Assembly: GCA_964630825.1 (NCBI GenBank)
Contig: CAZVZR010000002.1
Coordinates: forward strand, 19,648-83,647
Source of the DNA: an uncultured Planctomycetales bacterium
GTDB lineage: Bacteria > Omnitrophota > Gorgyraeia > Zapsychrales > Zapsychraceae
Length of the DNA: 64,000 nt
Direction of reading: 5' to 3'
A program made the position numbers and the translations under genes. Positions 2,452-51,563 of the stretch are shown here, one piece after another (position 1 is the stretch's first letter; each line of letters starts with the position of its first letter). Below the pieces are notes generated by a model. It had not been told where the DNA came from. It saw only the letters and a program-made list of their open reading frames with translations, and ran no database searches.

Positions 2452-2505
2452 AAGTCAGCATTACACGGCAGAAAGGTTGAGCCGTGTGCCTGCGGTTAAA
2501 GCACG

Positions 2506-3519
2506 ATGATTTCTATCATTATTCCCACTTATAATCGTCTTAATTTATTAAAGTCATTACTGGATTCTATAAGAAGGCAATCTTATCAGGATTATGAGGT
2601 TATAGTTGTTGATGATGCCAGCACGGATGGGACATATGAGTATATTCATCACAAATATTCGGAAGTTCATATTTATAGATTTAGAAGAAGGTGCGGGCCC
2701 ACACACGCTAAGAATATAGGAGTTTTGCAAAGCAAAGGTGAATACTTATTATTTCTTGACTCCGATGTTGAGTTTTTGGATAATACCGCTTTAGGTCGTT
2801 ATGTGCAAATTATTCAGAGAGAGAAAGGTTGCGGCCAATTGGGAGGAGAGGGGTTTTATCGAGACGCTAAAAAAGTTTTTGTTTATGGCCGAAAAATGAA
2901 GACGGCTGATCGCATTGATACGGATTATATTGAAACAAATGAAAAGGAAAAACAAAGATATTGTGACTATATTCCAACCTCCAATTGTTTTATTCTTAGG
3001 GAGGCTTTTCTAAAAGTTGGAGGCTTTGACCCGCGGTTTATTTATCCGGGAGAAGATATCGATTTAGGTATCAGGCTTAAAAAAGCCGGATATCAGAATA
3101 TTGTCCATTATGACGTCGGAGTTTTGCATCGTTTCAGTAAGACTTCCAGAATCAGGCGTTCTTTCAGTTTTTATAGGGCCCAAACTATATTTACTATTAA
3201 ATATTTCGGTTTTGGAGGAATTTTGATGAACCCCCTGCGGGACATTTTAGATGAATATATCCCGAGAATCAGGGGGTTCACCCAACGACGGTTTAAGCGC
3301 AGGTTAAATTATTTTTCCCCCGAGAAGACGAAATCGTTGGACATTCCCGGCGAAAAATCATTTTGGGATACGGCAGTGTATATGTTACGGTTGCCTTTTG
3401 ATTTGATATTGGCTTATTTCTGGTGTTTTGGGCATATGGGCACAATTTGCGCCCCACAAGTAAGTCATATAAATCAAAGCCGGGAATATGTTGTTAAACG
3501 AAATGTATTGTTGGATTGA
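2506..3519 (+). CDS. Family 2 glycosyltransferase
   Basis: N-terminus IIIPTYNR...SQSYQDYEVIVVDDASTDGT, then a DxD region (LFLDSDVEF). Confidence 0.8.
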   Translation: MISIIIPTYNRLNLLKSLLDSIRRQSYQDYEVIVVDDASTDGTYEYIHHKYSEVHIYRFRRRCGPTHAKNIGVLQSKGEYLLFLDSDVEFLDNTALGRYVQIIQREKGCGQLGGEGFYRDAKKVFVYGRKMKTADRIDTDYIETNEKEKQRYCDYIPTSNCFILREAFLKVGGFDPRFIYPGEDIDLGIRLKKAGYQNIVHYDVGVLHRFSKTSRIRRSFSFYRAQTIFTIKYFGFGGILMNPLRDILDEYIPRIRGFTQRRFKRRLNYFSPEKTKSLDIPGEKSFWDTAVYMLRLPFDLILAYFWCFGHMGTICAPQVSHINQSREYVVKRNVLLD

Positions 3520-4601
3520 TGGGATTACTTCTAAATTTACATAATAGTCGGGTTGAGCCTATTAGCCGGATGGCTGGGCGGCTAAGAGCCTTTCTGGATG
3601 AGAGGAAATTTTTCCCATCCACGTTAACTTTTTTTGTTACTGATCGATGCAATTTAAGGTGCCAACATTGTTTTTATATTCACGAAGTAGAGAATCCGAC
3701 CCCCAAGGAATTGTCGGTTGAAGAGATTCGAAAGATTCTAAGCGGCCTTAAAAGGTGTTCGCATTACATCATAACCGGTGGAGAGCCTTTTTTAAGAGAA
3801 GATATCCTGCCTATTTGTGAGATGATGCAAGGCAAAGAACACACCTTAAGAATTTGTACAAACGGGTTACTTAATGATCGCATTCAGGCTTTTGCACAGA
3901 GAATCCCCGATCTTTTGTTTAAAGAGGTTAGAATTCAGATATCCTTTGATGGCCCTGAGATGATTCACGATAAAATACGCGGGGTAGGTGCTTTCCGAAA
4001 AGCAAAAAAGACATTGCTCGACATTTTGCCGCTATTAGGCGGAAGAAATAATTTTTATATACAAATTGCTTTAACGTTAAATAAAATGAATCTTAATTAT
4101 TTGGAAGAGTTTTTGGCCGAATTTGTTTATTATCAATTACCGATAAATTTTATTGTGATGCGTGGGAGCGATCACGGCGTTTTTCATTTACCTCCCAATA
4201 TATCTCGCCAACAATTCCCTGCCAATAAAGAACTTTACCTCAATGCGGAAGAGATAGAATCTGCTATAGAACAAATAAAAGTTATCAATGATGCTTCAAA
4301 ATATAATTTTTTTAGTCAAGAGAATTGGGAAGTATTAGCTTGTTCAGCCGGTATTCTGCAAACAGGATACAATCTTTATAAGTGTTTTGCCGGGTCATTG
4401 GATGCTGTTATGTACCCGCAGGGTGAGGTGAGTTTTTGTGAGATAACCAAACCCATCGGAAACATTAGGGATTATGGATATAGTTTCTCCAGACTTTGGT
4501 ATTCTTTTGCAGCTCAAAATCTAAGGCCGTCAATCAAGCAGTGCAGTTGTATACATGGTTGCAATCTGTCCACGGGATTAGCGTTGAAAGTTTACCGTTA
4601 A
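3516..4601 (+). CDS. Radical SAM enzyme with a C-terminal SPASM/twitch-like Cys-rich domain
   Basis: CNLRCQHC (CxxxCxxC) cluster motif and a GGEPFL motif. C-terminal cysteines CSAG...CFAG...FCE...CSCIHGC. ATGA start overlap with the upstream GT2 gene. Confidence 0.8.
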   Translation: MMGLLLNLHNSRVEPISRMAGRLRAFLDERKFFPSTLTFFVTDRCNLRCQHCFYIHEVENPTPKELSVEEIRKILSGLKRCSHYIITGGEPFLREDILPICEMMQGKEHTLRICTNGLLNDRIQAFAQRIPDLLFKEVRIQISFDGPEMIHDKIRGVGAFRKAKKTLLDILPLLGGRNNFYIQIALTLNKMNLNYLEEFLAEFVYYQLPINFIVMRGSDHGVFHLPPNISRQQFPANKELYLNAEEIESAIEQIKVINDASKYNFFSQENWEVLACSAGILQTGYNLYKCFAGSLDAVMYPQGEVSFCEITKPIGNIRDYGYSFSRLWYSFAAQNLRPSIKQCSCIHGCNLSTGLALKVYR

Positions 4602-4624
4602 AATAAGTTGATAAGGGCAAAATT

Positions 4625-5470
4625 TTGAAAGATAACACTAGAGAAATATTCATCATCGAGTCGTTTTTGAAAAGAGTAGTGAATTATTTACGGCTGGTCA
4701 GGTTTTGGGAGTGGCAGGGGAGGTTGCAGATATTCATTGTCTGCGGTTTTTTGTTGTGGGTATTTTCAGGAAGCGATCATTTCCCCACGAAAGAGTTTTT
4801 GGTCCTTATTATTTATCTTCATTTTGCTTATAGTTATGGATACGGCTTAAATTCTTTGGCGGACAGGAGGGCTGATCTAGTTATTAGCAGGGATAACTTT
4901 TGTGATTTTTCTCGTCGTTTTTTAATCAGTACGGTAGTCTTCAATGGTTTTTTCACGATTGTTATAGCATGGTTTCTCCACAATATTTATATTTTTACCC
5001 TAACCATTATCGGTTTGCTGTTAGCGACTTTCTATTCGCTTAAGCCGATATGCTTTAAAGAGAAAGGCATGCTCGCTTTGTTCGTATCTGCATTATCGCA
5101 TTCTTTACCGTTCTTGTTTTTTGTATTTTTATTAAAGAGCCATTATTGGTTGATGGCTTATTTGTTTGGATGGATGATGATACTTGGTTTTTTTCTAGAA
5201 ATATCGCAGCAAATAGGAGATTATTTTAATGACCAATTAACACAAACCAGGACATTTGCCCGGGATAAAGGTGTGGTTTTTACCAAGAAGGTCGTTTATT
5301 TGACGGGAGCTCTGCTTTTGCTTTATCTGGTCCCTCCGGCTTTTGTCGAAGGAGTTTATGGGGCTTTAGTGTCTCTGGTTTTATTAGCTTTTTCCAAAGA
5401 TGCCGTGGATTATGCAATTCAAAGAGTCGGCTTAGTTAACGCCAAATTAAAAGTGATTAATAAGATATGA
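4625..5470 (+). CDS. UbiA-family polyprenyl transferase (integral membrane)
   Basis: About 8 predicted TM helices. Asp-rich motif N-SLAD-RRAD (NxxxDxxxD) in the first cytoplasmic loop. TTG start, so the start is uncertain. Confidence 0.6.
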   Translation: MKDNTREIFIIESFLKRVVNYLRLVRFWEWQGRLQIFIVCGFLLWVFSGSDHFPTKEFLVLIIYLHFAYSYGYGLNSLADRRADLVISRDNFCDFSRRFLISTVVFNGFFTIVIAWFLHNIYIFTLTIIGLLLATFYSLKPICFKEKGMLALFVSALSHSLPFLFFVFLLKSHYWLMAYLFGWMMILGFFLEISQQIGDYFNDQLTQTRTFARDKGVVFTKKVVYLTGALLLLYLVPPAFVEGVYGALVSLVLLAFSKDAVDYAIQRVGLVNAKLKVINKI

Positions 5471-6207
5471 TGACAGTTTACAACTCCCCTAAGATTAGAG
5501 TTTCCTTTATGGCATGCTTATTTGTAGGCGTTGTGTTGGTCCGGTTTTGTTATGCAGATCATGGAAAGAGCTTTCCCCAAGGCGACAATCCGGGGGATTA
5601 CATTGACAGGATGTACCGCGACGATGACACAATCCGTTGGGAGGAATATTTTAGTAACAATATTTTGGAGAAACATATTAGTTACTATGGAAATGGGAAG
5701 AAGGAATCGGATGTTAGTTTTAAAGGAGTAAGGAATCAAGACGGGCCGTTTAAGCGTTATTATGAAAATGGGAATCTGCTCGAGGAAGGTCAAATGAAGG
5801 ATGGTCAGATGGAGGGAACATATCGCCGTTATTATGATAACGGGAAATTGAAATTGGAAATTCCCTACCACAACGGATCGGCCAATGGAACAGTCAATCA
5901 ATATTATTCTAATGGCCAGTTAATGAATTCTTCGACCGTTAATGACGGCATGGTTGTAGACGGCGGAGAGTTTTATAATGAGGATGGTTCTCTCGTCGAT
6001 GGTCATTTTGCTTTATATTATGATGACGGTAGATCATTGCGCTTTGAAGGGGATTTTAAACATGGGAAAGCCGATGGAGAAATTATACAGTACTATTCGG
6101 ATGGGAGTGTGAACCAGAGCGGTGAATATAAAAACGGTAAGCTTGCAAAGAAAATAAAAAAGAGTAAGGAGAAAGATATTCCGGATTTTGGGCGTCCTGA
6201 TAAATAG
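5467..6207 (+). CDS. Secreted MORN-repeat (YwqK-like) protein
   Basis: N-terminal hydrophobic signal-like segment, then tandem YYxNGxL/YYDNGKLK repeats. Confidence 0.7.
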   Translation: MMTVYNSPKIRVSFMACLFVGVVLVRFCYADHGKSFPQGDNPGDYIDRMYRDDDTIRWEEYFSNNILEKHISYYGNGKKESDVSFKGVRNQDGPFKRYYENGNLLEEGQMKDGQMEGTYRRYYDNGKLKLEIPYHNGSANGTVNQYYSNGQLMNSSTVNDGMVVDGGEFYNEDGSLVDGHFALYYDDGRSLRFEGDFKHGKADGEIIQYYSDGSVNQSGEYKNGKLAKKIKKSKEKDIPDFGRPDK

Positions 6208-6213
6208 GAAGAA

Positions 6214-7302
6214 ATGAAGAAACTCGCGGTGTTTCATAATGCCATGGACGCTATTGGGGGCGCGGAAATAGTCGCCTTGACCTTAGCTAGAGAATTAAAG
6301 GCAGAATTTTTTTCCACCAATATAAGTAGAATCAAAGTGGACAGAATGGGGTTTGAGGATATTGATATTCAATCTATAGACACCGTCCCTCTTAATGCCC
6401 CCTTCCGGCAGCAGATGGTTTCCCACCGGTTTCGTAAGTTAGCTTTAAATGGAAAATATAGTTTTTACATTATCGCCGGTGATTGGGCGCTGTCGGCAGC
6501 GGTAAACCATAAGCCCAATTTGTGGTATGTTCACTCTCCGGCCAGAGAATTGTGGGATTTATATGAACATACACGTAAACATACAGTGCCCGGGATAGGC
6601 CGATGGTTTTTTGATATGTGGGTACAATTGAATAGATTCTTGAGCCGACAATACATTCAGAGTGTCGATTGTGTGGCCTGTAATTCTTCCAACACACAAA
6701 AAAGGATTAAAAAATATTTTAACCGGGATGCGGTTGTTATTTATCCTCCTGTCCATACGTCAAGATTTTATTATCGGCAAAATGGCAATTTTTGGCTAAG
6801 CGTTAATCGTTTGGTGAGCCACAAAAGGGTCGAAATGCAAATAGAAGCTTTTCGCAAGTTGCCGCAGGAAAAACTTGTTATCGTGGGAAGCTACGAAGAG
6901 GTAAAATGTTTTAAAAAATACATAAAATATTTAATGCAGATTAAACCGGATAATGTTGAGATTAAAAGTTGGGTGGATGTGGCGCAATTGACCGAACTTT
7001 ATGCCGATTGCAAAGCGTTTATTACGACGGCAAAAGACGAAGATTTTGGGATAACGGTGGTGGAAGCCATGGCTTCGGGAAAGCCGGTGGTGGCCCCCAA
7101 CGAAGGCGGTTATCGCGAGACGATGATTAATGAGGTCACAGGAATGTTGATTGATAATATCGATGTGGATAAACTTGTTCTGGCCATAGAAGAGGTCGGA
7201 AGAAATCCGCAACAATATAAAGAAGCATGTTTAAAGCAAGCCAAGAATTTTGATACTCAGATCTTTATCCAGAAAATAAAAGAGCAAGTACATAACTGCT
7301 AA
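6214..7302 (+). CDS. GT4-family (GT-B fold) glycosyltransferase
   Basis: N-terminus AVFHNAMDAIGGAEIV. C-terminal motif ITTAKDEDFGITVVEAMASGKPVVAPNEGGYRETMINEVTGML (EX7E-type). Confidence 0.8.
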   Translation: MKKLAVFHNAMDAIGGAEIVALTLARELKAEFFSTNISRIKVDRMGFEDIDIQSIDTVPLNAPFRQQMVSHRFRKLALNGKYSFYIIAGDWALSAAVNHKPNLWYVHSPARELWDLYEHTRKHTVPGIGRWFFDMWVQLNRFLSRQYIQSVDCVACNSSNTQKRIKKYFNRDAVVIYPPVHTSRFYYRQNGNFWLSVNRLVSHKRVEMQIEAFRKLPQEKLVIVGSYEEVKCFKKYIKYLMQIKPDNVEIKSWVDVAQLTELYADCKAFITTAKDEDFGITVVEAMASGKPVVAPNEGGYRETMINEVTGMLIDNIDVDKLVLAIEEVGRNPQQYKEACLKQAKNFDTQIFIQKIKEQVHNC

Positions 7303-7803
7303 ATGAAAGTTGCTATTTTACACGATTATTTTGATGAAATCGGCGGAGCAGAGCTCTCTCTTTTGGTAATGGCCCAGGCCCTGAAAGCAACAATTGTGAC
7401 CACTAATTTTAATAAGAAAAAAATCGACGAATTAGGGTTTCAAGATATATCCATTGTGTCCATTGGCAAGATTCCGCAACAGGCTTACGTGAAACAATTA
7501 ATGGCCAGATTGCGATTCTTTTTTTGTAATTTTCGGAATAATTTTGATTTGTTTATTTTTGGCGGTGTCTGCAGTATCTTTGCGGCAAAAATCCATCAAA
7601 ATAATGTATGGTATTGTTTTAGCCCCGAACGCCGGTTATATGACTTACATTCCTGGGAAGGCCTTAGAGATAATACATTTATTTGTGTGTTAAAAAAAGC
7701 CTTTAGTTTCATTGATCAATATTTTGTCAAACATATTCAGAAGACCATAGCCATAAGTGAAACAGTAGCAGAAAGAGTTCAGAAATATTATGGCCACCTA
7801 TAA
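7303..7803 (+). CDS. GT4 N-terminal-domain-only ORF (166 aa), a paralogue of the N-terminal half of the upstream GT4. Possible remnant or pseudogene.
   Basis: MKVAILHDYFDEIGGAELSLLVMAQALKA...ELGFQDISIVSIG aligns with MKKLAVFHNAMDAIGGAEIVALTLARELKA...RMGFEDIDIQSID. There is no sugar-donor-binding C-terminal domain, and the ORF stops 14 nt into the next gene. Confidence 0.5.
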   Translation: MKVAILHDYFDEIGGAELSLLVMAQALKATIVTTNFNKKKIDELGFQDISIVSIGKIPQQAYVKQLMARLRFFFCNFRNNFDLFIFGGVCSIFAAKIHQNNVWYCFSPERRLYDLHSWEGLRDNTFICVLKKAFSFIDQYFVKHIQKTIAISETVAERVQKYYGHL

Positions 7804-8695
7804 CCTTCAAACAGCGTCAATGAGCCCGTTATCTGATTTGGGCCAAAGGGAAAGAATCCGTTTCCCCAATCTTTTTATTGTCGGCTTCCCCCGAAGCGGG
7901 ACGACATCTTTGCATTATTGTCTTAATCAACACAAAGATATTTATATGCCGCCGCAAAAGGAATTATTTTTTTTTGCTCAAGAAATTTTTCAAAGATTAT
8001 GTCCACAGAGCAAGCCAGTATCTCTTGAGGAATACTTGGAACATTTTCATGACAGAAGCCATAAATGGGTGGGAGAGGCAACGGCGTCATATATTTTTTA
8101 TAAACCTTCCCTAGAGCGCATCAAAGATTTTCTTCGAGACTCTGGCGAACCGTCTAAATTTATCATCATGATCCGCAATCCTGCCGAGGCCGTTTATTCT
8201 CTTTATAAATTTGTTTTTATGAAGTATCGAAATTTTATCAATGAAGATTTTCCGACATCCTGGCAAAATAGAGTCCTTAAAAGGAATGTGAACGGAATTG
8301 AAACTGCGGACTTCTATCCTTGGGAAATTTTTAATATTCACCAGCATACCAGGTGTTACATTGACGCATTTGGCAAGGACAGAGTTAAAATCATTCTTTT
8401 CGATGATTTTAAACAATCCCCGGGGCTAGTTTATCAGGACACCTTACGTTTCTTAGGCCTAGAAGAAGACGGCCGTCTCAATTGGAGTATTCAAAACCAA
8501 AGTTTTTCTGGCACTGGTTTCTTAAGGCGAGCTATAAACAAACTTTTAAGTTTTGACAGGCAAAAGTTTTGTGTTTACCCTAACGAATTAAAAACGGAAA
8601 TCGTTTCTTATTATAGTAATGAAATTGATGGGTTAGCCGATTTAATCAAACGTAATTTGACGCATTGGAAGAATATTAAAAATATCAAAACTTGA
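7790..8695 (+). CDS. Sulfotransferase (PAPS-dependent family)
   Basis: 5'-PSB motif FIVGFPRSGTTSL. 3'-PB-like region IIMIRNPAEAVYSLY. Confidence 0.8.
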   Translation: MATYNLQTASMSPLSDLGQRERIRFPNLFIVGFPRSGTTSLHYCLNQHKDIYMPPQKELFFFAQEIFQRLCPQSKPVSLEEYLEHFHDRSHKWVGEATASYIFYKPSLERIKDFLRDSGEPSKFIIMIRNPAEAVYSLYKFVFMKYRNFINEDFPTSWQNRVLKRNVNGIETADFYPWEIFNIHQHTRCYIDAFGKDRVKIILFDDFKQSPGLVYQDTLRFLGLEEDGRLNWSIQNQSFSGTGFLRRAINKLLSFDRQKFCVYPNELKTEIVSYYSNEIDGLADLIKRNLTHWKNIKNIKT

Positions 8696-8701
8696 TTGTC
8701 C

Positions 8702-9580
8702 ATGACCTCTTCGGTTTCCATCGTTATCCCAGTTTACAACGGCGCCAAAACTTTACGGCGATGCTTGAATTCCGTCCTGGATCAAGATTTTACCGATTAC
8801 GAAGTGATTGTTGTTAACAATAACTCGCTTGACGAAACAGAGCACGTTATTAAGGATTTCGCGAGCCAGTTCCCAAAAATCAAATATGTGTTTGAACCTT
8901 ACCGTTCCCGGGGCGCCGCTAGAAACACCGGTATCAGGTCAGCGCAAGGGGAAATCATCGCCATGACGGATTGTGATTGTATCGTGCCAACCCATTGGTT
9001 GAGCGAGCTTATAAAACCTATCGTCAATGAAAATGAGTCGATCGTTATGGGTGGCGAAATAGATTTAGTTGATACGGACTGGACAAGATTAATACAACGG
9101 AAAGACGAAGAGCTTCATGAGCGCAACACCGAAGGGGAGCACATTCATTTTTTAGATACAAAAAATTTTGCTGCGCGCAAAGAAGTTTTTCAGGAATTTA
9201 TGTTTGATCCGCATATAAAAAACCTCGAAGATTTTGAATTTTTATTAAAAATTGAAAAGAAAATAATGGTTCGGTATCTTAAGGAGGTTAAAGTTGGCCA
9301 TTTCCACGCGATTTCTTTAAGAAAATGGTTTAGTTGTAATTTTGACCGAGGCTATTGGGCAAGGAAGATTTATGAAAATCATAAAAGCAAGTTGCATATC
9401 AAGGATATCCCGATATTAAGCGGCATGTCTTTGAGAAGTAGTTTAGCTTTTCCTTTCTGGATAATTATGCAGTTTATGGTTAAGCCTTTTCAAGAGGCAT
9501 GTTTTACATTTGTTTCAGAAATTTCCTGGAGATCGGGTATTCTTACCGCACAATTATATAAATGGGCTCCGCAGAACTAA
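8702..9580 (+). CDS. Family 2 glycosyltransferase, paralogue A of a tandem pair
   Basis: VSIVIPVYNGAKTLRRCLNSVLDQDFTDYEVIVVNNNS. DCDC region. C-terminal amphipathic/membrane segment. ATG at 8702; the track's 8696 start is a TTG. Confidence 0.8.
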   Translation: MTSSVSIVIPVYNGAKTLRRCLNSVLDQDFTDYEVIVVNNNSLDETEHVIKDFASQFPKIKYVFEPYRSRGAARNTGIRSAQGEIIAMTDCDCIVPTHWLSELIKPIVNENESIVMGGEIDLVDTDWTRLIQRKDEELHERNTEGEHIHFLDTKNFAARKEVFQEFMFDPHIKNLEDFEFLLKIEKKIMVRYLKEVKVGHFHAISLRKWFSCNFDRGYWARKIYENHKSKLHIKDIPILSGMSLRSSLAFPFWIIMQFMVKPFQEACFTFVSEISWRSGILTAQLYKWAPQN

Positions 9581-10461
9581 CGAATCCTTTCGTCACGGTC
9601 ATTATTCCTGTTTATAACGGGGCATCGACATTGCAACAATGTTTGCGGTCGGTCTTAAATCAAGAATATTCTCACTTTGAGATTGTCGTTGTTGATAATA
9701 ATTCCACTGATACATCAAGAAGAGTTATTCAAGAAGTGCAAAAGAACGAGAAAAAATTGAGTTATATTTTTGAGCCAATGCAAGCAAGGGGCGCTGCCCG
9801 GAATGCGGGTATTAATGCCGCTTGCGGCGAGATTATTTTAATGACCGATCAACATTGTTTCGTGCCTAGCGATTGGATAAAAAAGCTCATTGGGCCCATT
9901 ATTAACGAAGGTGAATTTATTGTTATGGGAGGTGAGCGCGACGCGGTTGGCCGTTTTTGGACAAAAATTATCAGTCAGCGTAATAAGGAATTTCGTGCCC
10001 GAAACCGCAATGGTTTATATATAAAGTATCTGGATACAAAAAATTTCGCCGCGCGTAAAGATGTCCTCAGGCAATATATGTTTAATCCACAACAAAGAAA
10101 TTTAGAAGACATTGAATTTTCTTTGAGGATTGCCGGTAATATTCGTATCCGTTATATGCCTGAAGTTTACGTTGATTATTTTCGTCCGATTTCGCTGGGG
10201 CGCTTGGCTAAAAATAGTTTTTCCCGGGGTTTTTGGGCTAGGAAGATTTATGACAATTATAAAAATAAACCGAATCTTGAGAGAATGCCGATGCTGGAGA
10301 GCATGTCGTTAAAGAACCAATTGGCCTTTATCCCGTGGGCAATATACCAGTTCATAAAGAAGCCGTTTAGTGAAGCATTTTTTATATTGGTTGCCGACGG
10401 GTCCTGGAGGTTGGGCGCCTTGGCGTCCCAACTAAATAAGAGAGTTGAAAGCTTTACTTAA
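9562..10461 (+). CDS. Family 2 glycosyltransferase, paralogue B of a tandem pair
   Basis: VTVIIPVYNGASTLQQCLRSVLNQEYSHFEIVVVDNNS. About 50 % identical to the preceding gene along its whole length (NFAARKDVLRQYMFNP vs NFAARKEVFQEFMFDP). Confidence 0.8.
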   Translation: MGSAELTNPFVTVIIPVYNGASTLQQCLRSVLNQEYSHFEIVVVDNNSTDTSRRVIQEVQKNEKKLSYIFEPMQARGAARNAGINAACGEIILMTDQHCFVPSDWIKKLIGPIINEGEFIVMGGERDAVGRFWTKIISQRNKEFRARNRNGLYIKYLDTKNFAARKDVLRQYMFNPQQRNLEDIEFSLRIAGNIRIRYMPEVYVDYFRPISLGRLAKNSFSRGFWARKIYDNYKNKPNLERMPMLESMSLKNQLAFIPWAIYQFIKKPFSEAFFILVADGSWRLGALASQLNKRVESFT

Positions 10462-10540
10462 AAAGTCTTCTTGCCTATAGGCCCAGCTGTTGTTATGTAA
10501 ACTTAAAGATTCCGGCTCGTAAACAGGTACATCTATTCCG

Positions 10541-11641
10541 CTATCCACCTGAAGGGCTTTTATCCAAAAGGTATAAAAACATAACGGCCATTGCTGTTTT
10601 ATTTTCAGAGCTTGTGTTGTTATAAACGCTGATTAATTCATATCGATGATTTTTATAAACGGGTATGCCCTCTTGGCTGGAAAAGTCATGGAAGGGAGCG
10701 AGGCTTTTTTGGTCCGGAGTATTTTGGACGGAACTTTTAAACAGAGACACATTGTCGGTAGCGTCCCTTAATTCAATAGATTCCGCGAAGGGATGTACAT
10801 GAAAGTTAATGTAATGGATAGTGGTGTCGTAGGGAATGGCTAGGTATTTGGTTATATCAGAACGGTTTATATCCCGGCCCGGTTTAACCAGCCAGTGAAG
10901 GGTGACAAAATCATCGGAAACATTAGAGCAGTTTCTTTCATTGACCCCACCAAAATGAAAGGGGAAGCCTTTATTGCGACAATTTAATCCGAATAAATAT
11001 TTTACATCGAACCAAAAATCGTTCCAGGAACGCAGGTGGGAGAAGAGGCCGAATTTTTCGCCTTTTTTAAAGGCAATCGCTGTACGCAAGAAAAGCGGTT
11101 TAAGCGGATGAGTGAGCGCATGATCGTCAATTACATGAACGGTTGATTTATTCCTGACGGTAATCTTTTCATGCGTATCATCTGGGTTGAGTACTTGAGA
11201 AAATAAGGTTAATTTTGTGTCACCTGATGTGGGAATGCCAAAACCTTCAGGGAAACGGATATTTTCTTGCCCCTGAGAAATCGTCACCAAGGCTTTATCA
11301 CCCCTGGTAATGACGCTGTGGCAGAGGTATTTTTGTGGTTCCGGTAAGGCGGCATTTTCGCTTAATATTTCAACATCATATCCGGTAATCCAGAGTTGAT
11401 CGGCTTTGTTATCTTGGCTTATTGAGAATTCGTGCGTACTGTACGGCCCCTCCATATTCAAATATTTTTTGTCCAAGGTATAACTCTCCGATACAATTTC
11501 TGTGGCAAAAGGAAAATAGGTAACCGTTCCTGGTTCTCTTGACTTCTTTTTGACTACATGGCATTCCTGGCCGAAGATAGTTTGGCAGTGAAAAAGAAAG
11601 AGGATAAGGAGCATACATTGGTATATTTTGGGGCTGGTCAT
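10541..11641 (-). CDS. Secreted protein of unknown function (signal peptide, His-rich conserved blocks)
   Basis: N-terminus MTSPKIYQCMLLILFLFHCQTIFGQE is signal-peptide-like. The 366-aa ORF diverges from a shared AT-rich intergenic region. No recognisable catalytic motif apart from His clusters (HVIDDHALTH, FHVHPF). Confidence 0.55.
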   Translation of the reverse strand: MTSPKIYQCMLLILFLFHCQTIFGQECHVVKKKSREPGTVTYFPFATEIVSESYTLDKKYLNMEGPYSTHEFSISQDNKADQLWITGYDVEILSENAALPEPQKYLCHSVITRGDKALVTISQGQENIRFPEGFGIPTSGDTKLTLFSQVLNPDDTHEKITVRNKSTVHVIDDHALTHPLKPLFLRTAIAFKKGEKFGLFSHLRSWNDFWFDVKYLFGLNCRNKGFPFHFGGVNERNCSNVSDDFVTLHWLVKPGRDINRSDITKYLAIPYDTTIHYINFHVHPFAESIELRDATDNVSLFKSSVQNTPDQKSLAPFHDFSSQEGIPVYKNHRYELISVYNNTSSENKTAMAVMFLYLLDKSPSGG

Positions 11642-11804
11642 TTTTTAAAAAAATATTTTCTTAATAATCTAGTATTTCGACAACGGCGGTGTATGTAAGT
11701 TTTAAAATGAAGAAATTAATTTGTCCGGCCAATAATTTCGTATATACTAAACTGTCTTTACCTAAATTGTCAAATTGATTGAGATTAGAATATTTTAACA
11801 AAAA

Positions 11805-12815
11805 ATGAGAAAAAAATTATTTTTAATTCTTATATTTTCTTTTTTATGCGGAGTATATCTTACTAATCGGCTGTCTTGGAGGGGGGGATTAGAGAAGGTG
11901 CCTTTCAACAACGATCCTATTCATAAGAAAGATGAGATCTTTTGGCATAATTTTATGCTTTTTCTGGATGAAGACAATCGCGTTATAAAGACACTGCATG
12001 AAAATAACGGTTGGCTATTATTGGAAGCAATTATGCGTGAAAAACTTGATGGGGTCGTTCCGGAAAGATTAAAAATATTGGCGCGCAGTTTTGGGAATGA
12101 GGCAGGCTTGTGGGGCTGGTGGCCTGAAAATGTTATGAAGACAGGCAGAAGATACTTTATACCAGCGCCTCATTTAAAAACGTATAAGTCTTATGACGTC
12201 GATGATACGGCGTGGGGGGCCAAATTAAATCATCGGCTTTTAACCGAGGAAATTGTTAAGAATTTTATGTATGATACTGATCTATCTGGAGATTTTCAGT
12301 CACGCTGTGCGGAAATCAAATGCCAAAAACAGTTTATATTGCGGTTATGGAAAGATATTCAGAATCTCCCCCCAAAATATAACATCAATATTGTCTGCAT
12401 CGCCAATGCCATTTCGGTTTTGGACTTAAACTCAGGCCAAAATCGGGTTATATTTGAAGAGAATAAAAAGTTTATAAATCATATCGTGGAAAATTTTGAC
12501 TATAACGAGTATTTTGAGTTCTATGCCCCCAAAATTACCGGAACATTTCTATTGCTTTTCTATGACAAGGAATATAGAAACTTTCTATCGAACGCCGCTA
12601 GAGATAAATTGATGAAAGATCTGTTGGCGCATTATGAGGAATTGCAAGACGCGGCCATTGAGGCTAAATGGGGTGTGAGTGAGAGGGTCTTACTTAATGT
12701 CGGCGGGTATAATATCACTGCCGTTAACGCTAAAATACCGCAATTAATGTATGCTTATGTGATAAAAAATTGGTTGAAAGAAAATGCACAACAGCCAGCC
12801 ACAACCGCAAATTAA
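11805..12815 (+). CDS. Hypothetical protein with an N-terminal membrane anchor
   Basis: A 336-aa ORF with an N-terminal hydrophobic helix (LFLILIFSFLCGVYL), plausible coding composition and no recognisable domain. Confidence 0.5.
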   Translation: MRKKLFLILIFSFLCGVYLTNRLSWRGGLEKVPFNNDPIHKKDEIFWHNFMLFLDEDNRVIKTLHENNGWLLLEAIMREKLDGVVPERLKILARSFGNEAGLWGWWPENVMKTGRRYFIPAPHLKTYKSYDVDDTAWGAKLNHRLLTEEIVKNFMYDTDLSGDFQSRCAEIKCQKQFILRLWKDIQNLPPKYNINIVCIANAISVLDLNSGQNRVIFEENKKFINHIVENFDYNEYFEFYAPKITGTFLLLFYDKEYRNFLSNAARDKLMKDLLAHYEELQDAAIEAKWGVSERVLLNVGGYNITAVNAKIPQLMYAYVIKNWLKENAQQPATTAN

Positions 12816-14295
12816 ATCTATGAATGTCATCCTCGTCGCTGTCCAGGGACAGCTTGCTAATGACGGGACGCGCTTGATCTCTTCTTTATTGAAAAGAGAG
12901 GGACACCGCGTTAAAACCGTTTTTTTGGCGCGTTACGCACCTATTCTTTATCAAGATCAAGAAATAGAGGAGCTCGACGACATCCTTCGGGATGGGGACC
13001 TTGTCCTTATGTCTGTTTACAGCTGTTACGTTGGAAGAGCCATTCAGATCACCAATTATATTCATAAAGAATACCCGGGGATGAAAGTCATTTGGGGCGG
13101 GCCACACTGCATCGGCGCCGCCGAACTAAGCCTGCGTTACGCCGATGGTGTTTGCTTTGCTGAGGCTGAAGATGCGATCGTTGAGCTGGTTAACAAATTG
13201 GCAGCCAGAGAAGATTATCAAGGTATTCGTAATATGGCATTTAAAGAAAAAGGGTCGCCTATTATAAACAGCGTGCGGCCGGCGATAATGGATCTGGACA
13301 GGCTTCCTTATTTTGATTATGACAGGAAGGATCATTTTATATTAGACAAAGAACTTTTGCCGATGACACCGGAATTGTTTGTTAAGAACCATTGCAAGTA
13401 TCCTTTTAATCGCCCGATGTTGCATGTTTTGACCACCAGGGGCTGTCCTTTAAAATGTACTTTTTGTAATAATGTCCGGTTTACGGAAATGTATGGAAAG
13501 AACCGCCTTCGGTTTCGCAGCTTTGAAAATGTTATCGGCGAAATCGAGTATATATTCAATAAAATCGATTGTTTTGATGAAGTAGGTTTTGCCGACGATG
13601 ATTTTCTGGCCAGGCCGGCGAAGGAACTGGCAGAGTTTGCCCAGCAATATAAAAAAAGAATAGGCCGGCCTTTTGCTCTGGCGACGTCGCCTACAACTTA
13701 TCAAAAAGAAAAGATGGAAATCTTGCTTGATGCCGGCCTTGTTTTTATCCAAATCGGGGCGCAATCAGGCAGCGAGCGCGTTTTAAAGGAGGTTTATGAC
13801 AGGCATATCCCTATTAAAAAGACCTTGGATGTTGTGCGTCAGGTTTCTTCTTACCAAAAATCACACGGTATGCAGTTGGTTATGGACTTTATTGTCGATA
13901 ATCCCTACGAGACACCGGAGGATATTATTCAGACATACCATCATTTTGTAGACATTCTCGGTTATGGGGTCGGTATCAATATTTTTCCGCTTTCTTTTTA
14001 TCCCGGCACACCGCTTTTTAAGAAAGCCCTTCAGGATGGCCTTATCAGCCCGGAAGGCATGGAACTTTTCCGTCCAGGGAAAGATCCTGACTCACGGTTT
14101 CAGAATAATTATCCAATGGTGCTCTTATTGTTGGCGTATGTTTTATATCAGCGGAATTTATTTTTTAGAGTGCCCAGGCGTTTGTTAAAGTTTCTCGGAA
14201 GCCCGGGAGTATGCAAAATTGCTTCAATTTTACCGCGAAGTTTTTATGCCTTTCTGTTGAAAGTTGTAAATCATTTCACCATTAAATTTGGTTAA
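12784..14295 (+). CDS. B12-binding-domain radical SAM enzyme (class-B-like)
   Basis: N-terminal Rossmann-like cobalamin-binding-type domain (MNVILVAVQG...VIWGGPH). Radical SAM motif CPLKCTFC. The start may be the internal Met at 12820. Confidence 0.75.
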   Translation: MHNSQPQPQIKSMNVILVAVQGQLANDGTRLISSLLKREGHRVKTVFLARYAPILYQDQEIEELDDILRDGDLVLMSVYSCYVGRAIQITNYIHKEYPGMKVIWGGPHCIGAAELSLRYADGVCFAEAEDAIVELVNKLAAREDYQGIRNMAFKEKGSPIINSVRPAIMDLDRLPYFDYDRKDHFILDKELLPMTPELFVKNHCKYPFNRPMLHVLTTRGCPLKCTFCNNVRFTEMYGKNRLRFRSFENVIGEIEYIFNKIDCFDEVGFADDDFLARPAKELAEFAQQYKKRIGRPFALATSPTTYQKEKMEILLDAGLVFIQIGAQSGSERVLKEVYDRHIPIKKTLDVVRQVSSYQKSHGMQLVMDFIVDNPYETPEDIIQTYHHFVDILGYGVGINIFPLSFYPGTPLFKKALQDGLISPEGMELFRPGKDPDSRFQNNYPMVLLLLAYVLYQRNLFFRVPRRLLKFLGSPGVCKIASILPRSFYAFLLKVVNHFTIKFG

Positions 14296-14353
14296 GTGGC
14301 CGGGGAATTTTTTGCATTTTTTGGACTTAAATTCCTTAGGGCTTAATGAGTTA

Positions 14354-16486
14354 ATGCCTAATATGAAAATAAAAATTATTGGGATTTTTATATTCATCGC
14401 AGTGGCCTGCCTACTTATCTTTCTTAGGAAAGAAGTTTTAATATCAAAAAATTATTCTCTGCAGTCTTTAATGCAACGGCGGATAGTAGATTTAAAAAGG
14501 GACTTAAGGAGGTTACCTAAGGGACACCAGTTGGAAAGATTTAATATTTTAGGCGAATTGGGTTTTTCGGCTCTTATTCTCAACCGGCATGAGGAGTCCG
14601 AATCATATTATTTAGAAGCTCGGGAAGTACTTAAAAATCTGCAATTAACGAAGTATGAATTGGTGGAGAACGCTCAACCGTTTTATCTGGATATGGCGCT
14701 GAATTATTTGAAATGGGCGGATAAAGATAACGCAAAAGAGAAGAAAATTCAGAAAGCAACAGCTCTTTTATACGAATACCTAGGGTTAGACCATGATAAT
14801 CTGACAGCTTATTGGTTACTCAACTTATGTTATTTAAAGCTCGAGCGCTACGATGAGCTTGAAGAAAAGTACAAGGTGCTGTTTCCTGGTTTAGGAGCGC
14901 AGGGTAGTTTATCTTTGTTTAAAAATATTGCGCCTAAATTAAAGGTGGATGTCTTGGGATACCTAGGTGGTATAGTTATCGAGGATTTTGATAATGATGG
15001 GTTCCTGGACATTATGGTATCTGATTATGATGCCGGGGCTCAGTTGCGGTATTTTCATAATAATGGTAACGGATCATTTACGGATAAAACTCAGGAAGCT
15101 CATTTGACTGGAGTTGTGGGCGGGCGGAATCTCGTGCAAGCAGATTATGATAATGATGGCTTTATTGATGTCTTTGTTGTGCGCGGTGTTGGGTATGATG
15201 GCTCAAATTTACTTTTGCATAATAACGGTGATGGTACGTTTAGTGACGTGACATTCGAGGCTGCACCAAGCGGCATGGGTTCTTTTTCCATGGTGGCGGC
15301 ATGGTCGGATTTTGATAATGACGGCGATCTCGATCTTTTCGTCGGTAATGCGGTCGGGAGAATCACCGATACATTATTGAGTTATCGTTACCATAATGAA
15401 TCAAAGAGTAAGAAAGAAATTTCTTTTGAAAATTATCTCTTCCTTAATGATGGTAAGGGGCATTTTAAGAACATCGCCAAACAAGCGGGAGTTGATAGGA
15501 CTTTTTACCTGTATGGTGCAAGCTGGGGAGATTTTAATAATGATCGTTTCTCCGATCTTTATGTTTCAACATACAACGGCAATAACTTACTTTTTCGCAA
15601 TAATCGTGATGGAACGTTTACTGATGTATCTGAAGTATTTGGGCCAACTAAGCCTTGGACCGGGTCATCGGCATGGTTTTGGGATTATAATAACGACGGT
15701 AATTTGGATATTTTTGCTTCACAAAATCATTTAGATGAAAATATAACAGTTAAAAGTTACACCTCACCACCTTATGCAGAGCAATTTTTACCGGCTCTTT
15801 ATGAGGGCAGCAAGGACGGCCGATTCCGTAATGTAGCGCCGAAAAAAGGTTTTCAAGTTGCTTCGTCTTCACCCGGCTCTAATTTCGCTGATTTGGATAA
15901 TGACGGTTATCCAGATATATTCTTGGGTAATTTGGGACTATTTGTTTATGGCTTATCTGTTAACAGAATTTATCATAATAGACAAGGCGAAAGTTTTGAC
16001 GTCGCGGGGAATTGGATCGGGGCGGATATTATCCATCAAGATATTGGCGGTGTTGCTTTCGGGGATTTGGATAATGACGGAGATCAGGATATTTATTTAA
16101 ATACCGGGGGAGTGATTTGGCAGGACAATGATGTATTATTAGAAAATCCCGGATTTGGCAACAATTGGATAAAGATCAGGTTAGTTGGAAAAGTTTCTAA
16201 CCGTTCGGCAATCGGCGCTCGGATAAGGGCTGATATAATCGAAGGAAATCAGAAGCGAAGCGTCTATGCTTATGTTGATAGCGGTGGGAAGTGTGGGTCT
16301 AACAGTTTACAGCAGCATTTGGGTTTAGGCAAAGCGGTGAATGTAGATACACTTGAAATTTACTGGCCGACATCAAATACAACTCAAGTATTTCATAATG
16401 TACCGGCGAATGTGTCGCTTAAAATTGTCGAAGGTGAGGATAAATACAGCGTTATTGAGTTACCAGCCGTGAATAATTCTCGGTAA
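14354..16486 (+). CDS. CRTAC1-family protein: TPR-like N-terminus, FG-GAP/VCBS repeats and a C-terminal ASPIC/UnbV domain
   Basis: Repeated FDNDGFLDIMVS, YDNDGFIDVFVV and FDNDGDLDLFVGN blocks. C-terminal NNWIKIRLVGKVSNRSAIGARIRA (ASPIC/UnbV). Signal-anchor MPNMKIKIIGIFIFIAVACLLIF. Start chosen at the first in-frame ATG. Confidence 0.75.
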   Translation: MPNMKIKIIGIFIFIAVACLLIFLRKEVLISKNYSLQSLMQRRIVDLKRDLRRLPKGHQLERFNILGELGFSALILNRHEESESYYLEAREVLKNLQLTKYELVENAQPFYLDMALNYLKWADKDNAKEKKIQKATALLYEYLGLDHDNLTAYWLLNLCYLKLERYDELEEKYKVLFPGLGAQGSLSLFKNIAPKLKVDVLGYLGGIVIEDFDNDGFLDIMVSDYDAGAQLRYFHNNGNGSFTDKTQEAHLTGVVGGRNLVQADYDNDGFIDVFVVRGVGYDGSNLLLHNNGDGTFSDVTFEAAPSGMGSFSMVAAWSDFDNDGDLDLFVGNAVGRITDTLLSYRYHNESKSKKEISFENYLFLNDGKGHFKNIAKQAGVDRTFYLYGASWGDFNNDRFSDLYVSTYNGNNLLFRNNRDGTFTDVSEVFGPTKPWTGSSAWFWDYNNDGNLDIFASQNHLDENITVKSYTSPPYAEQFLPALYEGSKDGRFRNVAPKKGFQVASSSPGSNFADLDNDGYPDIFLGNLGLFVYGLSVNRIYHNRQGESFDVAGNWIGADIIHQDIGGVAFGDLDNDGDQDIYLNTGGVIWQDNDVLLENPGFGNNWIKIRLVGKVSNRSAIGARIRADIIEGNQKRSVYAYVDSGGKCGSNSLQQHLGLGKAVNVDTLEIYWPTSNTTQVFHNVPANVSLKIVEGEDKYSVIELPAVNNSR

Positions 16487-17824: not shown

Positions 17825-17950
17825 TAAGAGAGGGTTTAATAAATACCAGAGGATGCCCAGGAAATTTCCTTCATTTTTTAATTTAAACTCGGCTCGGGCT
17901 AATGCTATACTTAATTTTAAACTTTCTAACGAAATTGAAATCTCCTTTTT

Positions 17951-51243: not shown

Positions 51244-51280
51244 TTTTTTCATAATTTTTTATTATAGAGAAAAAAGGCCG

Positions 51281-51556: not shown

Positions 51557-51563
51557 AAAATGC

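Follow-up and report, generated by a model that had tools for sequence, protein, structure and literature searches.

Radical SAM enzymes that contract a ring in glycolipid head groups have precedents in HpnJ and Cds (PMC13459092), and hypervariable polysaccharide loci have been reported in Omnitrophota genomes (bioRxiv 10.64898/2026.06.07.730766). In the 64,000-nucleotide stretch of DNA analysed here (the window), a tightly packed surface-glycan gene cluster of probable Omnitrophota origin is present that holds two radical SAM enzymes, a UbiA-superfamily prenyltransferase, several glycosyltransferases, a sulfotransferase and a Wzm/Wzt-type ABC-2 exporter. The reading that we favour, with a probability of roughly 0.6, is that positions 2506-19729 form one ABC-transporter-dependent glycoconjugate locus, composed of a conserved core and strain-specific tailoring cassettes.

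This block of overlapping genes has a GC content of 35-43%, compared with 45-48% in the flanking housekeeping genes; the maximum of 43% is found in the gene for the B12-binding radical SAM enzyme. A sequence-only reading had previously listed 13 genes, ending at 16486, as a single glycan locus. All 13 are found where it had placed them, with Pfam assignments that agree, the motifs CNLRCQHC, NSLADRRAD, FPRSGTTSL and CPLKCTFC are each confirmed in the translations, and the idea of a single glycan or glycoconjugate locus is supported. Its end was drawn too early, however: the block runs on to 19729 through the exporter (an ABC ATPase and an ABC-2 permease), which had been overlooked, and a conserved 12-TM protein. 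Nine genes within 2506-10461 are separated by intergenic distances of -19 to +23 nt, and on the basis of this spacing they are very likely co-transcribed. The window holds no gene for a geranylgeranyl reductase, a prenyl-diphosphate synthase, an initiating phosphoglycosyltransferase or PAPS synthesis. (It should be kept in mind that all NCBIfam matches of the locus enzymes, including those given below, lie far under the curated cut-offs.)

The division into core and accessory genes is drawn from one syntenic relative, the Omnitrophota MAG locus L010 (n = 1), together with short metagenome contigs. L010 keeps the GT4, two GT2s, the UbiA enzyme (33-37% identity), an FG-GAP/ASPIC protein, the ABC-2 exporter and the 12-TM protein. 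Counterparts of GT2a, of both radical SAM enzymes, of the MORN protein, of the sulfotransferase and of the two unassigned proteins are all absent from it. The core GT4 (6214..7302, + strand; Pfam Glycos_transf_1, 109.8 bits) is 62% identical to its L010 counterpart. It is followed by the N-terminal half of a duplicated GT4 (7303..7803, +), cut off at the start of the sulfotransferase gene. This fragment aligns at 32% identity with the neighbouring GT4 (residues 3-171) and at 37% with the N-terminus of the L010 enzyme; a remnant of the C-terminal half was sought and none was found. GT2b (8696..9580, +; Pfam GT2, 128.5 bits) and its paralogue GT2c (9562..10461, +) are 51% identical and overlap by 19 nt, as had been claimed. 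Compared with the tandem GT2 pair of L010, GT2b is 48-50% and GT2c 45-47% identical; GT2b also shares 44% identity with the GT2 upstream of UbiA in L011.

The exporter genes are convergent with these. The ABC ATPase, of the Wzt/TagH type (16452..17183, -; Pfam ABC_tran; 46% identity to the L010 gene), has teichoic-acid export (158 bits) and galactan Wzt (123 bits) as its best NCBIfam matches, both under the cut-offs, and the Wzm-type permease (17183 to ~17932, -; Pfam ABC2_membrane) has galactan-export Wzm as its sole NCBIfam match. The permease shares 48-52% identity with that of L010; at 52%, the similarity reaches 17926, past a TTG at 17824, and translation probably starts at a non-canonical ATT that follows AAGGAG. 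Adjoining the exporter is the 12-TM protein (17951..19729, +; 12 hydrophobic segments; 42% identity to the L010 gene), which has an invariant loop motif, YPYPYFxDEW, and no match in Pfam, NCBIfam or PDB; its single-sequence AF2 model (pLDDT 44) is unusable.

The UbiA-superfamily prenyltransferase (4625..5470, +; Pfam UbiA, 55.1 bits) belongs to a small uncharacterised family, with only 18 representatives at E<=1e-30 among 1.84 billion proteins, and its motifs N76xxxD80xxxD84 and D199xxxD203 are invariant across 28 relatives. The closest curated families are the BchG/ChlG and DGGGPS-like models, although at scores far under the cut-offs: chlorophyll synthase is matched by 27 of the 28 members and the DGGGPS-like prenyltransferase model by 24. 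Assignment to the menaquinone or haem O group, which would have made the association fortuitous, is not what is found, with MenA matched only weakly (4/28) and haem O synthase by no member (0/28). Elsewhere, relatives of this enzyme adjoin GT4 genes (L003, L013, L017), GT2 genes, geranylgeranyl reductases (L010, 147.5 bits to TIGR02032, and two in L013) and CrtC-type hydratases; CrtC/lipocalin hydratases and an FAD oxidoreductase occur as neighbours or as fusion partners. These neighbours make an isoprenoid-linked glycoconjugate reasonable, and the product of the locus is probably isoprenoid-anchored. Of the polyprenyl-linked, sulfated glycoconjugate proposed earlier, the isoprenoid linkage is thus plausible; the joining of UbiA and both radical SAM enzymes into a functional combination, discussed below, is not supported.

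The UbiA enzyme might also act without any prenylation. Like the DPPR synthase of mycobacteria, it would then load polyprenyl phosphate with a phospho-sugar taken from PRPP or a comparable donor, and the resulting lipid-linked donor would be used outside the membrane by a GT-C-like 12-TM protein on a glycan exported by Wzm/Wzt, as in arabinogalactan. The set of GT2s, UbiA, a Wzm/Wzt-type ABC-2 exporter and a large polytopic membrane protein resembles the mycobacterial cluster, and the galactan-export matches of both exporter subunits, the invariant loop of the 12-TM protein and a weak match of the UbiA family profile to DPPR synthase 8j8j (E = 0.032) point in the same direction. However, ChlG and AfUbiA fit this profile ~2000-fold better by E-value, DPPR-type NCBIfam models are matched by 0 of the 28 family members, the geranylgeranyl reductase and CrtC-hydratase partners suggest modification of a prenyl chain, and GT-C similarity is not detectable in the 12-TM protein. 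Such a pathway is rather improbable.

A further partner of the UbiA family is the membrane-anchored FG-GAP/ASPIC (CRTAC1-like) beta-propeller (14288..16486, +; Pfam FG-GAP_3, 161.7 bits, and UnbV_ASPIC, 47.7 bits), which has one N-terminal TM segment. A UbiA + FG-GAP + ASPIC fusion (P0255) matches both window genes, UbiA is followed by an FG-GAP gene in L003, and the L010 gene directly after UbiA is 38% identical to the propeller of the window. The support for a conserved partnership comes from only these three independent instances and the window, where the two genes lie 9 kb apart.

The tailoring genes begin with GT2a, a family-2 glycosyltransferase (2506..3519, +; Pfam Glycos_transf_2, 98.5 bits), and its radical SAM partner (3516..4601, +; Pfam Radical_SAM, 59.5 bits). 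The latter had been called a radical SAM/SPASM enzyme; the Radical_SAM domain and CNLRCQHC hold, but a full SPASM domain does not, as the SPASM Pfam match of 18.6 bits is under the cut-off of 21.5, and the C-terminal domain is better described as reduced and SPASM/twitch-like. Residues C45/C49/C52, C290, C308, C343, C345 and C349 are invariant in the family. The junction of the two genes, previously given as ATGA at 3516, actually reads GAT TGA TG, which provides either a 1-nt TGATG overlap with ATG 3519, probably the start, or a 4-nt overlap with TTG 3516. (An ATGA overlap does occur in the locus, but between UbiA and the MORN gene, at 5467-5470.) The AF2 model of the radical SAM enzyme has a pLDDT of 89, and a fold search places SkfB, SuiB, BlsE and anSME nearest, with scores so alike that they do not discriminate. 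The enzyme does not group with anSME: it has no match in the PDB at the sequence level, and anSME is not among the best 25 of 67 NCBIfam families.

Comparison with other loci supports a conserved partnership of GT2a and the radical SAM enzyme. Four fusions of ~620 aa (P0016, P0022, P0030, P0032) have an N-terminal GT2 domain, matching the gene order in the window, and the two genes are neighbours in four further loci (L001, L002, L019, L020). In L001 and L002, a GT2 gene that shares 39-41% identity with GT2a lies 2.5 kb away from the radical SAM homologue, and the fusion protein of L004 has a GT2 domain with 32.5% identity to GT2a; in L019 and L020, GT2a-like genes are directly upstream of the radical SAM gene. 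Neither this pair nor that of UbiA and the propeller had been noticed by the sequence-only reading, and no description of either was found in the literature searched.

The substrate of the pair could conceivably be a peptide and not a sugar, if GT2a and the radical SAM enzyme were a RiPP- or mycofactocin-like maturation and glycosylation system embedded in the glycan locus. The peptide maturases SkfB, SuiB, CteB and ChlB are among the closest folds, ScmE, MftC and WgkB lead the NCBIfam matches of the radical SAM enzyme, as MftF does those of GT2a, and L019 and L020 hold three radical SAMs and a 44-aa ORF. Yet the MftF match is generic, with an identical score for GT2b (86 bits), the contexts of the GT2-radical SAM family are mostly Wzx/Wzy, STT3 or WecA-type glycan loci, and intergenic gaps of <=54 nt across 2451-10461 leave no space for a precursor gene. 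We regard a peptide substrate in the window as very unlikely. At L019 and L020 themselves, where two more radical SAMs and the 44-aa ORF accompany the GT2-radical SAM pair, the context could be peptide-modifying instead of glycan-modifying.

The second radical SAM enzyme (12784..14295, +; Pfam B12-binding, 40.4 bits, and Radical_SAM, 79.1 bits) is of class B, with a B12-binding domain. Its family is widespread, with hundreds of homologues of ~50% identity and ~484 aa, and its orthologues are standalone in three of four other independent contexts (L006/L021, L007-9), mostly among unrelated housekeeping genes; in L005 the gene is within a glycan locus. Coupled to it, and overlapping or abutting it upstream, is a strain-specific gene (11805..12815, +) for a 336-aa protein with an N-terminal anchor, no family match and no assigned function, which was not found beside the class-B orthologues in other loci.

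The sequence-only reading had combined both radical SAM enzymes and UbiA in the making of one modified, polyprenyl-linked glycoconjugate. Spelled out as a single pathway, UbiA would give the isoprenoid and the glycosyltransferases the sugar, the radical SAM enzymes would adenosylate an olefin or contract a sugar ring to a cyclitol, and the radically modified isoprenoid glycolipid would then be sulfated. Parallels would be archaeal calditol and, among hopanoids, the side chain made by HpnH, HpnI, HpnK and HpnJ. The HpnJ and Cds precedents support such chemistry. In addition, the genes lie within a single low-GC block, with the first radical SAM gene 23 nt from UbiA in the same operon, and GT2-radical SAM cassettes in L018-L020 adjoin class-B radical SAMs, a phosphodiesterase and a deacetylase. 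The best NCBIfam match of the class-B enzyme is HpnJ, and the other radical SAM enzyme matches HpnH weakly; however, these scores (for HpnJ 115 bits, where the cut-off is 578, and for HpnH 46 bits) are 5- to 6-fold under the cut-offs, the class-B enzymes of L018-L020 are only 23-32% identical to that of the window and are not orthologues, and the orthologues have the mostly housekeeping contexts described above. Profile HMMs find the first radical SAM family and the UbiA family together in the window only among 22 fetched loci, the former being present in 0/9 other UbiA-family loci and the latter in 0/6 other radical-SAM-family loci; L010, as noted, has neither radical SAM. The two are not co-conserved, an outcome that the sequence-only reading itself had named as a sign of a fortuitous association, and their adjacency is an operon-level juxtaposition in one genome, not a conserved enzyme partnership. 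A single pathway is accordingly unlikely, though the recurrence seen in L018-L020 may mean that the two radical SAM classes are less independent than is concluded here.

The remaining tailoring genes are also without a counterpart in L010. They encode a MORN-repeat protein (5467..6207, +; Pfam MORN_2, 62.7 bits) with one N-terminal hydrophobic segment, a signal or anchor; a PAPS-type sulfotransferase (7790..8695, +; Sulfotransfer_3, 53.7 bits, and Sulfotransfer_1, 41.4 bits, both over the cut-offs), in which FPRSGTTSL is accompanied by RNPAEAVYS; and a 366-aa protein (10541..11641, -) with no Pfam or NCBIfam match and no homologue across the fetched loci. Of the earlier description of this last protein as secreted and His-rich, the signal-peptide-like hydrophobic N-terminus is confirmed and the His-richness, at 4.4% of 366 aa, is weak.

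Taken together, these comparisons suggest how a glycoconjugate locus with a conserved core could operate. Using a C20-range prenyl diphosphate, UbiA would O-prenylate an acceptor that bears a hydroxyl group (a sugar or polyol phosphate) to form an isoprenoid anchor, on which the GT4 and GT2 enzymes would build the glycan at the cytoplasmic face; the product would be exported by Wzm/Wzt and handled outside the membrane by the FG-GAP/ASPIC propeller. To this core the strain would have added the PAPS sulfotransferase, the MORN protein, the two unassigned proteins, the class-B radical SAM enzyme and the GT2a-radical SAM cassette, in which GT2a would add a sugar that its partner then modifies by H-atom abstraction, whether through oxidation, epimerisation, decarboxylation or ring chemistry.

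The glycan locus opens with nine closely packed genes, spaced by -19 to +23 nt, which encode a GT2 glycosyltransferase (GT2a, 2506-3519), a radical SAM enzyme with a sub-threshold SPASM match (3516-4601), a UbiA-type prenyltransferase (4625-5470), a MORN_2 protein (5467-6207), a GT4 enzyme (6214-7302), a 166-aa GT4 N-terminal fragment (7303-7803), a sulfotransferase (7790-8695), and two GT2 paralogues, GT2b (8696-9580) and GT2c (9562-10461), that are 51% identical. Next come two family-less proteins, each with a signal or anchor segment (10541-11641 on the minus strand, and 11805-12815), a radical SAM enzyme with a B12-binding domain (12784-14295), and an FG-GAP/UnbV_ASPIC protein (14288-16486). 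A sequence-only reading had listed these open reading frames, and their positions, Pfam assignments, and quoted motifs hold up, as does the overlap of 19 nt at 9562 between GT2b and GT2c. Other details needed correction: the ATGA placed at 3516 reads TGATG or TTGA, the true ATGA being that of UbiA/MORN (5467-5470); the 10541-11641 product, described as His-rich, is merely 4.4% His; and the locus had been ended too early. Three further genes lie 3' of the FG-GAP gene, encoding a Wzt/TagH-like ABC ATPase that is convergent with it (16452-17183, minus strand), an ABC-2 (Wzm-like) permease (17183 to ~17932, minus strand), and a protein with about 12 TM segments (17951-19729).

The whole block has a GC content of 35-43%, lower than the 45-48% of the housekeeping genes on either side. 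Its upstream neighbours encode UvrC, an MGMT-type DNA-binding protein, and a PilT-like ATPase; downstream, after a family-less 1702-aa protein, come RF2, SecA, Lnt, an LpxL-like gene, an H+-PPase, and nitrate/nitrite genes. Promoter and terminator scans were uninformative, with 61 promoter-like sites versus 54 expected. No enzyme of the locus reached an NCBIfam cut-off in the model search, and the window contains no gene for a prenyl-diphosphate synthase or for PAPS synthesis. (The 1702-aa protein, 19837-24945, directly follows the locus, has an N-terminal signal-like segment and 21 Cys, and has neither a Pfam match nor a counterpart in L010, the syntenic locus of a Candidatus Omnitrophota MAG; very long proteins are a trait reported for Omnitrophota. 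Elsewhere, an extra GT2 gene (51564-52388) and a TPR protein gene (52373-54130) lie between two tRNA genes (51170-51243 and 54223-54295), and this segment, 51170-54295, is possibly a small islet or a hotspot of integration.)

The sequence-only reading had joined two radical SAM enzymes, the UbiA enzyme, and sulfation in a single unusual polyprenyl-linked glycoconjugate pathway. The radical SAM and UbiA genes, 23 nt apart, are almost certainly co-transcribed here. To judge whether this adjacency is conserved, UbiA-family loci, in part found with a 7-sequence alignment, were compared; they comprise one long syntenic relative, L010, which is the only genome locus found to carry the family, and short metagenome contigs. 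L010 contains a GT4 gene (62% identity to that of the window), an unknown gene, a tandem pair of GT2 genes (45-50%), UbiA (33-37%), directly downstream of it an FG-GAP/ASPIC gene (38%), a geranylgeranyl-reductase (GGR)-family gene (TIGR02032, 147.5 bits), and the ABC ATPase (46%), ABC-2 permease (48-52%), and 12-TM protein (42%). GT2a, both radical SAM enzymes, the MORN protein, the sulfotransferase, and the two family-less proteins lack counterparts there. The synteny with L010 suggests that the window comes from an Omnitrophota-like organism. The metagenome contigs show GT4, UbiA, and FG-GAP (L003); a GT2b-like gene and then UbiA (L011); GT4 followed by UbiA, a phosphodiesterase, and two GGR genes (L013); CrtC/lipocalin, UbiA, an unknown gene, and GT2 (L014); a CrtC-UbiA fusion (L015); and UbiA adjoining GT4 (L017). 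In none of these six contexts is there a radical SAM gene near UbiA. When family HMMs were run on all ORFs of the 22 fetched loci and the window, the radical SAM and UbiA families were found together only in the window, so their adjacency is not conserved. The observation made in the sequence-only reading is confirmed and its interpretation partly supported; an integrated pathway built on the radical SAM and UbiA enzymes appears unlikely despite the tight spacing of their genes.

What does recur is the pairing of UbiA with the FG-GAP/ASPIC protein. Within 14288-16486, PF13517 matches with 161.7 bits over 6 stretches and PF07593 with 47.7 bits. UbiA and FG-GAP genes are direct neighbours in L003 and in L010, and one 859-aa protein, P0255, which shares 36% identity with the window UbiA, fuses UbiA, FG-GAP, and UnbV_ASPIC domains; its halves match the UbiA and FG-GAP genes of the window. 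In the window these genes lie 9 kb apart, so the window locus is rearranged relative to L010. Judged by synteny and this fusion, the pairing is evidently a conserved one. To our knowledge, the CRTAC1/ASPIC-type propeller family has no assigned function in bacteria.

The UbiA protein belongs to its superfamily (PF01040, 55.1 bits versus a cut-off of 34.2); it has at least six hydrophobic segments, and N76, D80, D84, D199, and D203 are invariant, giving both Asp-rich motifs (NxxxDxxxD and DxxxD). Among 1.84 billion proteins its family is small, with 347 representatives at E<=1e-3, of which 18 reach E<=1e-30. The nearest curated relatives are chlorophyll synthase, which 27 of the 28 members match, and prenyltransferases of the DGGGPS type (24 of 28 and 16 of 28). 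In neither case is the protein a member, since it scores 26.7 bits against a BchG cut-off of 212 and 23.1 bits against 269 for the DGGGP synthase model PRK12884, roughly 10-fold below. MenA models match at most 4 of 28 members, and weakly, while haem O synthase models match 0 of 28; neither this grouping nor that of the radical SAM enzyme with anaerobic sulfatase-maturating enzymes (anSMEs), both of which the sequence-only reading had named as grounds for abandoning it, is found. O-prenylating enzymes that work with geranylgeranyl reductases (ChlG/BchG, paired with ChlP, and DGGGP synthase of archaea, paired with GGR) share both Asp-rich motifs with the window UbiA, and, as in those systems, members of its family elsewhere adjoin GGR-family reductases. 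Unlike them, the window itself has no GGR (a homology search of the whole window found no GGR, CrtC, or phosphodiesterase homologue), and the neighbours of the UbiA family are glycosyltransferases and an extracytoplasmic propeller rather than tetrapyrrole or GGGP-pathway genes. In a sister branch (P0275, P0279, P0273; L014 352-2359; L015 150-1868), CrtC-type lipocalin (carotenoid 1,2-hydratase-like) domains are fused or adjacent to UbiA, and P0325, also of the UbiA family, is a fusion with an FAD oxidoreductase. The CrtC and FAD partners suggest hydration or reduction of a prenyl chain coupled to the transferase.

The ABC-2 permease and ATPase match PF01061 and PF00005, respectively, and lie adjacent to glycosyltransferase genes, as in a predicted Wzm/Wzt exporter; among NCBIfam models they come closest to exporters of teichoic acid and galactan, with scores below the equivalog cut-offs. 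The synteny of the pair is kept in L010, as is that of the 12-TM gene. A Wzx/Wzy-dependent locus is not indicated, as no gene within 2506-19729 matches Polysacc_synt or Wzy_C; loci of that type do house relatives of the radical SAM enzyme in L001 and L002. Homology of the permease to its L010 orthologue continues in an open frame to 17926, about 100 nt upstream of the first ATG, GTG, or TTG codon (TTG 17824). A strong AAGGAG followed by ATT codons suggests a non-canonical ATT start near 17932, which would place the divergent permease and 12-TM (ATG 17951) starts about 18 nt apart, leaving no room for an intergenic promoter.

The 12-TM protein bears on a second alternative, in which the UbiA enzyme would act as a DPPR synthase and supply a GT-C enzyme, by a logic resembling that of mycobacterial arabinogalactan. 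A YPYPYFxDEW motif, invariant with respect to the L010 orthologue and located in a predicted loop (residues ~129-142), recalls the acidic motifs found in loops of GT-C enzymes. No homology of the 12-TM protein to GT-C is demonstrable, a two-sequence profile gave zero matches in PDB or Pfam, and a single-sequence AF2 model (pLDDT 44) was unusable. Moreover, the solved relatives that best match the UbiA family profile are chlorophyll a synthase and AfUbiA (E ~1e-5), compared with 0.03 for DPPR synthase. We regard this alternative as quite improbable.

A second conserved partnership, separate from UbiA, is that of GT2a with the radical SAM enzyme encoded at 3516-4601. The enzyme is a member of its superfamily (PF04055, 59.5 bits versus a cut-off of 29.5), and C45, C49, and C52 of the CxxxCxxC motif are invariant in 21 relatives. 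Canonical SPASM enzymes carry a seven-Cys motif, CX9-15GX4C ... CX2CX5CX3C ... C, and two auxiliary clusters. The window enzyme falls below the SPASM cut-off (PF13186, 18.6 bits versus 21.5) and conserves just five C-terminal Cys (C290, C308, C343, C345, and C349), in the pattern C-x17-C ... CxCx3C; its fold lies within the SPASM/twitch clade. It is 12-21% identical to the sugar-modifying BlsE, BtrN, and DesII and to the peptide-modifying SkfB, SuiB, and anSME, and, unlike BlsE/SkfB-type enzymes, it is partnered by a GT2, to which some relatives are fused. An anSME assignment was rejected: no anSME model was among the best 25 of the 67 NCBIfam families matched, and PDB gave no sequence-level match.

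Four homologues of ~620 aa are GT2-radical SAM fusions, with domains in the order of the window genes. GT2a is 32.5% identical to the fused GT2 domain in locus L004, has homologues of 39-41% identity located 2.5 kb from a radical SAM gene in L001 and L002, and is mirrored in L019 and L020, where a GT2 gene lies immediately upstream of the radical SAM gene and overlaps it. These comparisons point to a conserved GT2a-radical SAM partnership. It occurs in glycan loci, among whose genes are Wzx/Wzy, STT3, a WecA-like GT, PMT_2, and GT9, and the radical SAM family probably modifies sugars in polysaccharide loci. A third alternative, in which GT2a and the radical SAM enzyme act on a peptide, takes its appeal from the peptide modifiers of the SPASM/twitch clade. 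A RiPP precursor was rejected, as the operon leaves no intergenic room for one, and these glycan contexts point to sugars; a peptide substrate thus seems very improbable. A mycofactocin-like system was likewise set aside: there are no mft genes, and the MftC and MftF matches are generic, that of GT2a to MftF because GT2b scores equally (86 bits).

Among the related loci, L018 (1-21857) places the fusion P0030 among STT3, a WecA-like GT, three class-B radical SAMs, a phosphodiesterase, an AP_endonuc_2 TIM-barrel protein, a deacetylase, PMT_2, and GT9; it is a glycosylation locus unusually rich in radical SAMs, with an STT3 homologue included. L019 (8288-13661) and L020 (2885-8138) contain two GT2 genes, a radical SAM gene (its product 36% identical to that of the window), a B12 radical SAM gene, a second radical SAM gene, and a 44-aa ORF, followed by TPR proteins. 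This compact cluster could be RiPP-like or serve to modify glycans, and in it the GT2-radical SAM cassette is seen to recruit additional radical SAMs.

The other radical SAM enzyme of the window (12784-14295) is of class B (PF02310, 40.4 bits versus 32.1; PF04055, 79.1 bits), carries CPLKCTFC, and is predicted to use cobalamin. Its family is large and very uniform (~484 aa, ~50% identity), extending over Thermodesulfobacteriota, Planctomycetia, and others. Orthologues stand alone among unrelated genes in L006/L021 and L007-L009, and one lies within a glycan/LPS locus (L005); the enzyme is thus a widespread one, usually standing alone and without an assigned function. At 43% GC, its gene exceeds all others of the locus and comes nearest to the genomic background. 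Class-B radical SAMs also adjoin the GT2-radical SAM cassettes of L018-L020; these are just 23-32% identical to that of the window and belong to another family, so the association holds at the level of the enzyme class, not of orthologues. The best curated match is HpnJ, with a TIGR03471 score (115.5 bits) far under the cut-off of 577.6.

Radical SAM chemistry on isoprenoid glycolipids has precedents in HpnJ and Cds (PMC13459092). As in the window, the hopanoid side-chain pathway (HpnH, the GT2 HpnI, HpnK, and HpnJ) and the calditol synthase Cds of archaea set a GT2, a SPASM-like enzyme, and a B12-domain radical SAM around an isoprenoid lipid. The window differs in having neither a squalene-hopene cyclase nor other hpn genes, in scores far below the equivalog cut-offs, and in the lack of co-conservation between its three corresponding genes and the UbiA family; a hopanoid reading was rejected on the scores and the missing hpn context.

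The sulfotransferase (PF13469, 53.7 bits versus 27; PF00685, 41.4 versus 22) has the 5'-PSB loop PRSGTTS and the 3'-PB motif RNPAEAVYS and is predicted to use PAPS as donor. Its gene starts, with a 14-nt overlap, where the fragment at 7303-7803 ends. This fragment is the N-terminal half of a GT4 arisen by duplication, and no remnant of the C-terminal half is left after it. It looks like the scar of a sulfotransferase cassette insertion; alternatively, it may be a functional acceptor-binding half-domain.

The best reading of the locus is that of a glycoconjugate pathway dependent on an ABC transporter. The resemblance of the UbiA family to the O-prenylating C20 transferases ChlG/DGGGPS, together with its partners elsewhere (GGRs, CrtC-type hydratases, an FAD oxidoreductase), leads us to infer four steps: UbiA would place an isoprenoid anchor on a hydroxyl-bearing acceptor; GT4, GT2b, and GT2c would build the glycan; Wzm/Wzt would export the product; and the FG-GAP/ASPIC propeller, anchored by a single TM segment, would act on it beyond the membrane. 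GT2a of this strain may attach a sugar, to be modified by its radical SAM partner, BlsE being a precedent for such sugar chemistry, and the sulfotransferase, with its intact PAPS-binding motifs, may add sulfate. We give a probability of about one in five to the full proposal, in which UbiA-FG-GAP/ASPIC with GT4, GT2, Wzm/Wzt, and the 12-TM protein would constitute an undescribed bacterial pathway, shared by Omnitrophota with other uncultivated lineages, for a surface glycolipid, isoprenoid-anchored through an ether or ester linkage, whose head group would here be remodelled by the GT2-coupled radical SAM (possibly to a carbocycle or keto-sugar, as with HpnJ/Cds/BlsE), the B12 radical SAM, and sulfation.

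Mosaic surface-glycan loci are already a known type of system, and the hypervariable cargo of Omnitrophota genomes is reported to include polysaccharide genes (bioRxiv 10.64898/2026.06.07.730766). Like the Wzm/Wzt loci for export of O-antigen, teichoic acid, and mycobacterial galactan, the window locus clusters GT2/GT4 genes with an ABC-2 permease and ATPase, has a GC content below that of its flanks, and is mosaic, with tailoring genes such as the sulfotransferase. In contrast to them, it has two radical SAMs and, in its conserved core, UbiA, the FG-GAP/ASPIC propeller, and the 12-TM protein, while an initiating phosphoglycosyltransferase is absent from the window. In the literature searched, neither this core (UbiA, FG-GAP/ASPIC, 12-TM, and Wzm/Wzt) nor the GT2-radical SAM link is described; searches for UbiA with ASPIC, UnbV with FG-GAP, radical SAM/SPASM with glycosyltransferase and polysaccharide, and UbiA with GGR and GT clusters returned nothing relevant.

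Striking enzyme combinations in glycan loci can be strain-level mosaics, and synteny and fusions separate partnerships from juxtaposition. If our reading of the core is right, the GT2-radical SAM fusion, a Rosetta-stone link, would open to direct testing a radical SAM family that is widespread but uncharacterised. A small, hitherto unnoticed UbiA subfamily would then connect the transfer of isoprenoids with the assembly and export of glycans in uncultivated bacteria, and the bacterial CRTAC1/ASPIC-type propeller would gain a concrete partner and a pathway context.
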